Below are positions 1 through 20,695 of a stretch of DNA of 64,000 nt, piece after piece. The notes beneath the pieces were generated by a model. It was not told the DNA's origin. It did not search any database and saw only the letters and a list, made by a program, of their open reading frames with translations. Both the position numbers and the translations under genes were made by a program. This DNA comes from a virus (lineage: Duplodnaviria; Caudoviricetes), in the IMG/VR virus record IMGVR_UViG_3300027205_000173, positions 32,001 through 96,000 of that record, one strand, 5' to 3'. Each line of letters starts with the position of its first letter. The stretch's first letter is position 1.

Positions 1-3000
1 CGTCCTGCTCGTCGGGCAAGAACAGAACCCATCCCTGCAGGTCCGCCAACACTAAACGCCGCAGCCATCTCCCCAAGAAGTTGAACGGCCTCCGCCCTAT
101 CCTCGTCAACACCAAGTTTTTCTAATGCCTTACGTGATCTGTCGGATGAAATGATTCTTCCGGCAACACCAGCCTTGGCGCGTGTATTTGATCCAACATT
201 AGAACGAGAACGTAATCCACCCCATCTTTCATATCCACCCACAACATCATTGACCTCAGACGCAATTGGCCCAGTCTTGGTACCATCAAGCAAATCTTGG
301 ATCATGTCTTCGGGCATTCCAGACGAGGCACCAAGGTCTCTGATCTCATCACGCAATGCATTGATTCTGTCTGTAATTCCTTGTGGTTCTCTTACGCCAG
401 CATAAACATCATCAATGATGTCGCGCATTACGTTGTCAATATCTTCGACATTGTAGTAATCACGTGATCGTGGAAGATTTTCGGTATTTGAATTCCTGTA
501 TTCGCGTGGCTCTACTGCTTTTGGTTTAGGCGTCCGCTTAGTAGTTGATTTAGCCGGTCTCGTTGCAGTGCGTGATCGCATGCCTCCTTCGTCATTAGTA
601 GGAGGTCTGGCATCTAGGAAAGTTTCTTTTTCACTTTCAAATGCCGCAACTGCTTTTTCAAATTTAATTTTAGTTTCATTCTCTTTGGATCGTCGTTTGG
701 ACTTGTCTAATACGTCCGTAGGCCAGTTATTTTCTATGGCACCGTCAATAATTCCTTGCATTACTTTTGCTGTTGCTTCGGCATCTGCGTCTGCGTTATG
801 GTGTTTGTCTCCAAGGTCGACACCAAGATATTTTGTGATATCTCCAAGTGAGTTTGAAGGCGACTTAGTGCCATCTTTGTTAACTTTGAATGGGGCATCT
901 TGATTTGTTTCAGACCATTTTGGAAGAACCATGTCGGAAATTTCTTTAGTATCGATGATTCCCTTGGGTCTCCAATCAATGCCAGAATCTTTCAATGCGT
1001 CTTCTAGGACTTCATTATCAAACACGGCGTTTTGCATTCCCATCAATTCTGTATCACCCATGAATTCAACTAATTGTTTATGGGCATCTGCTATTGAAGG
1101 TTTGTCCGCCAGGTATGCATCTGTTATTGGGTTGCCGTCGCCGTCCTTGAGGTTGTCTCGTGACCATTTTTCCCATTCCGACATTGGCGTGCCAGGGTTG
1201 ACAAACACGTTAAAACGCGCAATGACTTTGCCATTTTTCATTTTTACAGCACCTATTTGAGTAGGTAGTCCATTTCCTGCTGATTCGTTAAATTCATTGA
1301 ATTTGAGACCAGTTGTTTCGTAGTCGATGAAAACAATTTCTTTATCTGCAAGCACGCGTTTAAAATCTTCCCAATTTGTTATTCCATCAAATTCTGAATC
1401 TGCAGAACCGATGAACGCACCCATTGTTGGCTTGCGAGGATATTGCGGAGGTTTGGGTCCAGATTGTGAACGCATGCCAGTACCAGTAGAGGTACCACGT
1501 ATTTTACGGGTAGCCCTATCTAGTGCGGCCCACTGCTTATCACTTAAACGGCCACGGGAATTATATTGAGAAACGACACTTTTAGCAAAATCACCACTTA
1601 AACCACGAGCAGCCTCAATGATTGCCTTCTTGTCTTCATTAGAAAGTGAAGGCGCGATATCTTCAGCCTTATCTATTCCTTCTTTTGCAGATGGACCGGC
1701 TGATGTTTTTTTATTTTTAGAAACTATGCTACGTAGTAAATTCCATTGTTTTTCCGTAAGCCAGCCACGATTGTATGTTTTGTATTGTTCAACAAGGGAT
1801 GTAATAAGGTCATTTCCAGTAATGGACGAAGCATCGCTTATTAATTGATCTCCATCATCTGGTTTTAGTCCTGGTTGTTTAGGAGTACTTTTAGGGTATC
1901 TACTGGGATATTCTCGTGGTATTTGGTCTGGACGCCTACCGAGGGGGTCTGGCGCCGTATATCCCCGGTCTGGTCGGAAACCATCTTGCCTGGCATCGTA
2001 TGCCCTATCGCCATCTTCATCAGAAATCCAAATCCTGCTTTCGCCGTCGGTCCAGTATCGCCCGCCGCCTTCATTGTATCTAGAGCGCATCCCGCGATCT
2101 TCTACATCAACCCCCTTAGCAATGTTTCTTAAATCATCAGTTAAGGAATTAAAAATATCGTCAACTTCGTTGTCATCAATATTGTCCATACGTGAAGAAA
2201 TATTTGGAGTATTAACATTTGGTCTATTGATATTTTCAGTCTGCGTAGCACGTATGCGAGCCTGGGCATCAGGGGACTTCTTGATGGCCTTCAAGGTCTT
2301 CTTCAGGTTTGGTGCCATGTCATCAAGCATTCTTGCTGACAACATTTGCTCAACGGTCTGAAGGCCACGTGAACTTGGGTGCTCTCTAAAAGTTTCAGGA
2401 GACATGAGGTCTATCCCGTCAGGGTTAGTGAAAACTAAACGTCCGTCAAAATTGTTTTTGTTTCGAAAATCTTTTTCAAATTTCTTAGCAGCACGATGCT
2501 GTTTCAACCAACGAGCAGATTGAAGATCAACTTCGCCATCATTGACCATACGCAAATATTCATTAATTTCGCCATCGCCAAAACCATTAGTTTTTAATAA
2601 TTCTCGCCCATTATCGCCAATTAAAGAATTGATATCTAACTTTTCATTATTCATGTCAAGTTTATTTACTGGGTAACGTATCTCGGCAACGTCATCCAAA
2701 CTCACCCCACCAGCAACAAGTGCTTCGTACCTATTCCCTGGTCTGAGAGCACGTTCTGATCTACTTGCTGAAATATCGTCAGACAGAGAACCACTAAAGT
2801 TGTCATCAATAACATTTTGCAAGGCATTAGCAATATTGCGCATTCTGTCTGATTCCGAATTACCCGCAGTAATCGATTCATTAAGGTGTGCTAATCCAAC
2901 ATCGCCAGGTTCGTCAAACAAAACTGGTGTTGGATAGTTGTGTGAACGAATTGCTTCTCCGCGTGAATACGCAGAACGAGAAGCAACTTCTGGTTTTAAT

Positions 3001-20695: not shown

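Follow-up and report, generated by a model that had tools for sequence, protein, structure and literature searches.

A genome-specific peptide tag between swappable modules of four giant phage head-cluster proteins as a candidate protease processing signal

Why does one short peptide recur throughout giant proteins of a phage head gene cluster? The question comes from a 64-kb stretch of DNA (the window, to which coordinates refer unless marked G000) within a 124,933-bp phage contig, G000, with an estimated completeness of 84%; G000 coordinates are those of the whole contig. The original prediction reported 29 copies of G[MLFV]RS[RQKT] in two giant proteins. Six-frame translation reproduced every coordinate of the 24 strict copies in the ORF at 9719-20695 (-) and of the five in the ORF at <1-7523 (-), as well as the variants GMRQS (20120-20134) and GMSSG (16565-16579). 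The estimate of less than one chance copy also held, as 500 shuffles gave an expectation of 0.056 copies (maximum 2) in the 3658-aa protein and 0.032 in the second. The 29 positions are thus real, but the count of two genes was too low: the second ORF continues beyond the window to 2662 aa, and two more tagged giants lie outside the window, between its head genes and the major capsid gene. Giants 1-4 hold 24, 5, 17, and 5 copies of G[MLFV]RS, 51 over 11,144 aa. The other 27,907 aa of the genome contain one strict copy, in a tail protein, the tape measure. Chance or an assembly artefact was rejected because these modules and tags recur on independent contigs and shuffles yield <0.06 copies. We likewise rejected a role of the tag Met as an internal start codon, since many copies have Phe or Leu and the STRS/GSKST genomes have no Met.

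The four proteins are strings of about 50 swappable modules with one short tag between them. Giant 1 (3658 aa; 9719..20695, -) consists of an HK97-type S78 prohead protease domain (20180..20659, -; PF04586, E 4.8e-10; His64 and Ser128 motifs present), a leader, and then modules joined by the 24 tags, whose low nucleotides on the minus strand are 18929, 18752, 18518, 18164, 17924, 17333, 17081, 16925, 16046, 15524, 15149, 14549, 14393, 13751, 13358, 13124, 12737, 12377, 12200, 11654, 11072, 11048, 10232, and 10157. The leader K|AL-G...DxDxDG-x-V-x-EG...ERP (19106..19294, -) is common to giants 1, 3, and 4 and a 926-aa zincin ORF. In the form K|[AGS]LG...DxDxDG...ERP it precedes the tagged region of giants 1, 3, and 4, and where S78 is a separate gene giant 1 starts with this module, which may serve in capsid targeting. 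Two pairs of tag-bounded modules are duplicated at 77% identity, aa 644-721 and 840-919 (17939..18766, -) and aa 2311-2441 and 2520-2648 (12752..13765, -). A KTSC domain lies within another tag-bounded module (11978..12145, -; PF13619, E 6e-6; structure match 7x8c, Z 9.3); the other structure matches of giant-1 modules are helical bundles and uninformative. Pfam found neither of the hallmark domains MPTase-PolyVal and ArdC-N in giant 1.

Giant 2 (2662 aa in full; window 1..7523, G000 31535-39523, -) has a conserved N-terminus, a gluzincin metallopeptidase (5388..6380, -; HEFGH at 5835-5849, a conserved Tyr, and ExxxE at 5484-5498), an ADP-ribosyltransferase (ART)-like domain (3759..4271, -), and then five tags (3732, 2079, 1464, 570, and 204, -). 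The ART-like domain is a lead from an ESM Atlas feature score of 0.94 to PF03496 clusters, with recognition below threshold and no match in a Pfam search. A DEDDh 3'-5' exonuclease module (585..1478, -; PF00929, E 2e-15) has tags on both sides. The 551-aa module at 2124-3728 (-) is conserved in many relatives and has a weak Atlas lead to DUF3626 (0.84). Giant 3 (2543 aa; G000 18119-25750, L082:620-8251, -) has 17 tags and two KTSC domains; four of its tags form tandem pairs 6-7 aa apart (GMRSRSG-GMRS), which are probably recombination scars. Giant 4 (2281 aa; G000 10873-17718, L081:7874-14719, -) has five tags and, in separate tagged segments, a DUF3721 leader, a zincin (HEMGH), a zeta-toxin-like kinase, pentapeptide repeats, and ArdC-N (PF08401, E 2e-24) with MPTase-PolyVal (PF18818, E 3e-43). 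The earlier view that single segments are recognizable domains is borne out by the KTSC, exonuclease, zeta-like kinase, pentapeptide, and ArdC-N/MPTase segments, and the segment lengths agree as well (8-293 aa in giant 1, where a 584-aa leader comes first, and 122-551 aa in giant 2). The 926-aa ORF (G000 28755-31535, L083:756-3536, -), which shares the DxDxDG leader and has a third zincin motif (HEATH) as well as a GMRVR variant, occurs in only three of 13 relatives.

We rebuilt 13 related head modules for comparison. Their gene order is conserved (portal, S78/giant 1, scaffold, giant 2, small genes, kinase-like gene, giant 3, giant 4, capsid), and the giants sit between the portal and major capsid genes, in a virion-gene context, in these relatives as in G000. 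The portal protein (20815..22839, -; PF04860, E 5e-45) has no tag. Neither does the 709-aa acidic scaffold-like protein (7536..9665, -), which has Cys clusters, many K|[SAG] motifs, and PepSY-like units (E 0.006, under the curated cut-off); its PepSY-like part, considered as a possible binder of the zincin in the manner of M4-type PepSY-inhibited proteases, is 63-75% conserved, versus 14-34% for the giant-2 zincin. Two low-complexity ORFs of 1003 and 503 aa after the capsid gene (G000 5921-8932 and 4400-5911, L081) likewise contain many K|S, K|A, and K|G motifs. The 674-aa kinase-like protein (G000 25747-27771, L082:8248-10272, -) is conserved (39-51% across distant relatives) and has an RCPxGxxxGGRFT motif and a kinase-like C-terminus.

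The position of the tag at joints between folded modules is comparatively well supported. AlphaFold modeled aa 2815-3658 of giant 1 (844 aa; pLDDT 83, pTM 0.40) as a string of separately folded units, with five of six tags in joints of pLDDT<50 between confident domains; one further segment of pLDDT<50 in this region has no tag. Across 13 genomes, homology ended <=20 aa from a tag in 22.9% of cases, compared with 8.5% for random sites (null maximum 11.7%). Spacing between tags is irregular (6-612 aa), and the tags track module ends.

Within a genome the giants share one consensus, which differs between relatives: GMRSR, GM[RS]S, STRS, SSRS, GSKS[ST]T, G[FL]SSST, [ST]LRSSG, GLSSG, GL[RA]S, and GLASS, with RLSSG, SLSSG, GMASR, and GFAS from further loci. 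These patterns were picked by their enrichment in the giants, which makes their counts there circular; the alignment and tape-measure tests are independent of that choice. Alignments between genomes crossed a tag in 497 cases, and in 208 of these the other genome's own tag stood at the aligned position, against a background of 4.7%. GMRSR, STRS, and GSKST all occur within one supported S78 clade, so that close relatives have sharply different tags. One consensus per genome that differs between genomes suggests a single reader acting in trans.

Most relatives use tag codons near background, encode Ser by both TCN and AGY, and vary at wobble positions. The mixed Ser codons and the exchange of M, L, F, and V argue for selection on the peptide. 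In G000 itself CGT and TCA are enriched (39 vs 20 and 31 vs 13) but Gly codons stay at background. Of 37 DNA matches to the tag with <=2 mismatches, 36 are in frame 0. The tag DNA is also where modules are exchanged: strains with 95-98% identical S78 differ by insertion, deletion, duplication, and reordering of modules. Of the 40 internal DNA breakpoints between these close strains, 38 are <=45 nt from a tag, where about 20% would be expected. Modules also cross between genes, as the exonuclease module is in giant 1 in G007, flanked by GSKS tags, and in giant 2 in G018, flanked by GLAS tags. An integron-like cassette array was rejected because there is no conserved DNA site (wobble positions vary) and no tyrosine integrase; PF00589 was absent from five genomes, four of them at least 90% complete. 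Candidate machinery for the swaps is encoded at 24944..26547 (+), an Erf-like single-strand annealing protein (PHROG 1097, E 4e-8) with an exonuclease (PHROG 69, E 2e-27). Two forces probably act together, microhomology recombination and selection in favor of modules that are complete and flanked by tags.

The tag also reaches the tail. The protein at 47817..52163 (+), without a match in a PHROG search, is a probable tape measure by its size and its position after the sheath, and it carries GMSSK (49488) and GMRSQ (49653) in a Gly-rich region. In 16 of 21 genomes, residues 520-780 of the tape measure contain that genome's tag, versus 17% for foreign tags. These copies bound no mobile module and still match the tag of their genome. 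Eight relatives (L186-L205) have a second copy of their own tag at tape-measure residues about 35-55, absent in G000. The sheath of the contractile tail (44977-46479, +) has one GLRSI of moderate score at 46264.

Selection on the peptide, the disorder of the joints, the match to module boundaries, and co-variation across the genome together give strong indirect support to the tag being a processing signal, and it is quite likely that some protease cuts it. The original prediction left the S78 domain and the zincin of the neighboring ORF as equal candidates. That parity survives in a partial Mantel test, in which tag distance correlates with zincin and S78 alike without separating them, but the evidence as a whole tilts toward the zincin. 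S78 prohead proteases normally act inside the prohead, and the HK97 enzyme gp4 cuts at Lys103|Ser104. Lys motifs kept in the aligned genomes, FK|A and VK|S before and after the S78 domain and [QV]K|D where the capsid delta region ends, make up a second motif class beside the tag, and by that precedent they may be S78 cut sites. Hydrophobic-K-[ASG] is enriched before the first tag of giants 1, 3, and 4 (7.5-8.6 vs 1-3 per 1000 aa, from small counts).

S78 might also cut the tag inside the prohead, treating M-R|S like F-K|A as a basic|small site in the manner of T4 gp21 or SPN3US gp245. A hydrophobic-basic-Ser pattern suits both motif classes, R|S or K|S is found in several tags (that of G007 is GSK|S), many genomes have S78 and giant 1 fused, and S78 distance correlates with tag distance (rho 0.40). 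SPN3US gp245 favors Ser at P1' (PMC10052503). Yet S78 is 76-97% identical across motif classes (89% mean column identity) whose tags run from GMRSR to the non-basic GLSSG; GFSSS and GLASS lack a basic residue as well, with S78 and its Lys motifs unchanged. The fusion is dispensable, being split in three of 13 rebuilt modules, and the tag in a tail protein counts against a purely prohead-internal event. The tag therefore does not fit the rule for S78 substrates, and on sequence S78 appears the weaker candidate for reading it; we consider this explanation unlikely.

The giant-2 zincin has the variability that S78 lacks. Its position is much the same throughout a family of roughly 100 sequence clusters, and HExxH is present in 96 of 98 cluster representatives, the remaining two being incomplete sequences. 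H, E, H, Q, G, Y, and two Glu are invariant in a sequence of otherwise 14-34% identity. HExxH and a downstream Glu on a zincin fold (AF2 pLDDT 87) place it among the gluzincins. There was no Pfam or PDB-sequence match, and Foldseek of both AlphaFold models returned no PDB match at E<=0.001. The best structural matches were the catalytic domain of anthrax LF (Z 8.8, a level that a mere common arrangement can give; rmsd 5.1, 174 aligned) and PPEP-3 (Z 5.8). G032, with the different tag [ST]GxM[ST] in its giants and tape measure, has an unrelated zincin in the giant-2 position and an S78 at 74% with the same Lys motifs, but as the longest S78 branch and most distant lineage it is a single confounded case. 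A predicted complex of zincin, S78, and tag peptide scored 0.01. A cut at G|M would suit a hydrophobic P1' pocket, and a cut at R|S would leave stable Ser ends. Against the zincin, other cluster zincins (the 926-aa ORF, giant 4) could read the tag in some lineages, and the N4 virion RNAP, ArdC, and TraC1 bear such zincins yet stay uncut (Iyer et al., PMC5512222). As the cutter of the tag, we rate the giant-2 zincin at even chances.

We propose that the phage would make four giant precursor polyproteins subject to two processing codes. By analogy with HK97, S78 would act at Lys sites as the head matures, trimming leaders, scaffold, and the capsid delta domain, and G-[MLF]-R-S would be the cut site of the zinc endopeptidase carried in giant 2. 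With the precursors packaged, this second cut would probably come at a late stage of assembly or during ejection into the host, freeing about 45 small modules and splitting the tape measure. Because every module begins and ends with a tag, recombination through about 14 nt of tag microhomology could insert, delete, or reorder whole modules in frame; the swaps are seen at the sequence level. The tag most likely shifts genome-wide between relatives because a phage zinc protease cuts there. This is the best explanation of the whole, and we would give it the same chance of being right as wrong. An extended form, in which the fast-evolving zincin and the tag evolve together, a private lock and key for the four cargo polyproteins and the tape measure, cutting at infection releases about 45 effectors, and the tag DNA is an in-frame shuffling joint, we hold only tentatively.

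Other explanations dispense with a phage protease. An uncut tag could be a docking, sorting, or modification site (e.g., at its near-invariant Ser) that tethers or threads the chains in packaging or ejection. A binder acting in trans would equally predict genome-wide co-variation and disordered placement, and the tail is a passage for head cargo and tape measure alike. We nevertheless think it improbable, given that the tags follow module ends instead of a regular spacing, that an intact, fast-evolving protease runs throughout the family, and that the cluster's only kinase-like gene lacks the catalytic Asp positions. Phosphorylation of the Ser by that 674-aa protein is unlikely for the same reason and because it has no PDB match; Pfam gave none either. 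That the tag is mainly a DNA recombination handle, homogenized by concerted evolution and encoding a tolerated linker, is also improbable: the clustered breakpoints, the CGT-TCA enrichment in G000, and the Erf-like protein are in its favor, but codons near background in most relatives, tape-measure copies that follow the genome's tag while bounding no mobile module, and the missing integrase speak against it. Cutting by a host protease after ejection, with the tag drifting with host range, seems least probable. It would account for the co-variation and the tape-measure copies, and a title cited by 10.1101/2022.09.20.507954 refers to T5 tail-protein cleavage with host involvement, but closely related phages differ sharply in their tags.

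Processing by the giant-2 zincin would extend known systems. Like polyvalent proteins, which have 2-15 domains and for which zincin autoproteolysis was predicted and left open (Iyer et al. 2017, PMC5512222), the giants are large multidomain proteins in a virion gene context with zincin MPTase, ArdC-N, ART-like, and kinase-like (zeta) domains. Giants 2 and 4 belong to that class on sequence criteria (diverse domains, hallmark domains in giant 4, virion context). Assemblin-like peptidases are C-terminal there, however, whereas S78 is N-terminal here, and here one tag spans four genes and the tape measure and drifts genome-wide; a term search of PMC5512222 returned no repeated junction tag. One short motif over many head proteins recalls T4 gp21/IP/Alt and SPN3US gp245 (PMC10052503), where leaders are removed and cargo is ejected with the DNA, as may happen here. 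In SPN3US single proteins lose N-terminal propeptides at 13 of 14 sites (PMC10052503); here, in contrast, folded modules are separated by tags throughout the chain, the tag makes a second code alongside the Lys motifs, and it extends to a tail protein. The giants would work like MARTX toxins (PMC6315884), modular effector chains with release by a built-in protease and variants made by recombination, although MARTX is a secreted bacterial toxin of one gene with a cysteine protease and up to five effectors, and no homology is implied. LF/PPEP-type gluzincins (MEROPS M34-like), with HExxH, Tyr, and ExxxE, are fold neighbors of the giant-2 zincin but share only 14-15% identity with it; it sits in a phage head context and shows no sign of being an animal toxin. 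The tape measures of T5 and lambda are cut in morphogenesis, with a single C-terminal cut (10.1101/2022.09.20.507954), unlike the mid-protein and often also N-terminal tags here, which are common to the head-cluster giants.

In the literature searched, mostly without subscription papers, we found no description of the tag, and in the searchable part no substrate motif for zincin self-processing of polyvalent proteins. The family thus supplies a candidate site for the self-processing predicted in 2017. More than ten natural protease/tag pairs make the idea testable by cognate-versus-noncognate cleavage without culturing the phage and, if the pairs are orthogonal, would provide new site-specific proteases. 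With 11,144 aa, the tagged giants make up 27% of the assembled genome, and the tag divides them into about 50 defined modules. Most of these belong to no known family; each can be folded by itself and screened for host-takeover or counter-defence activity.

The phage is uncultured and of freshwater type. WhiB, encoded in three of four relatives tested, points to an actinobacterial host; the assembled part of G000 has none. The terminase large subunit (23118-24422, +) lies on the strand opposite the portal and head genes, with divergent transcription. A PAPS-reductase-like gene (40517-41665, +; PHROG 2302, E 2e-68) and a ParB-like gene (38020-38811, +) possibly form a DNA-modification module, and two tandem small ORFs (G000 2093-2964) look, by eye, like HNH endonucleases. 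The family is common, with 512 S78 matches in IMG/VR; cultured phages match the S78 domain only, at <=42%. Streptomyces phage Gilgamesh gp48 (L085:2764-16638) is a hypothetical protein of ~4600 aa with the portal on one side and a protease on the other, and this cultured actinophage is a possible bench model.
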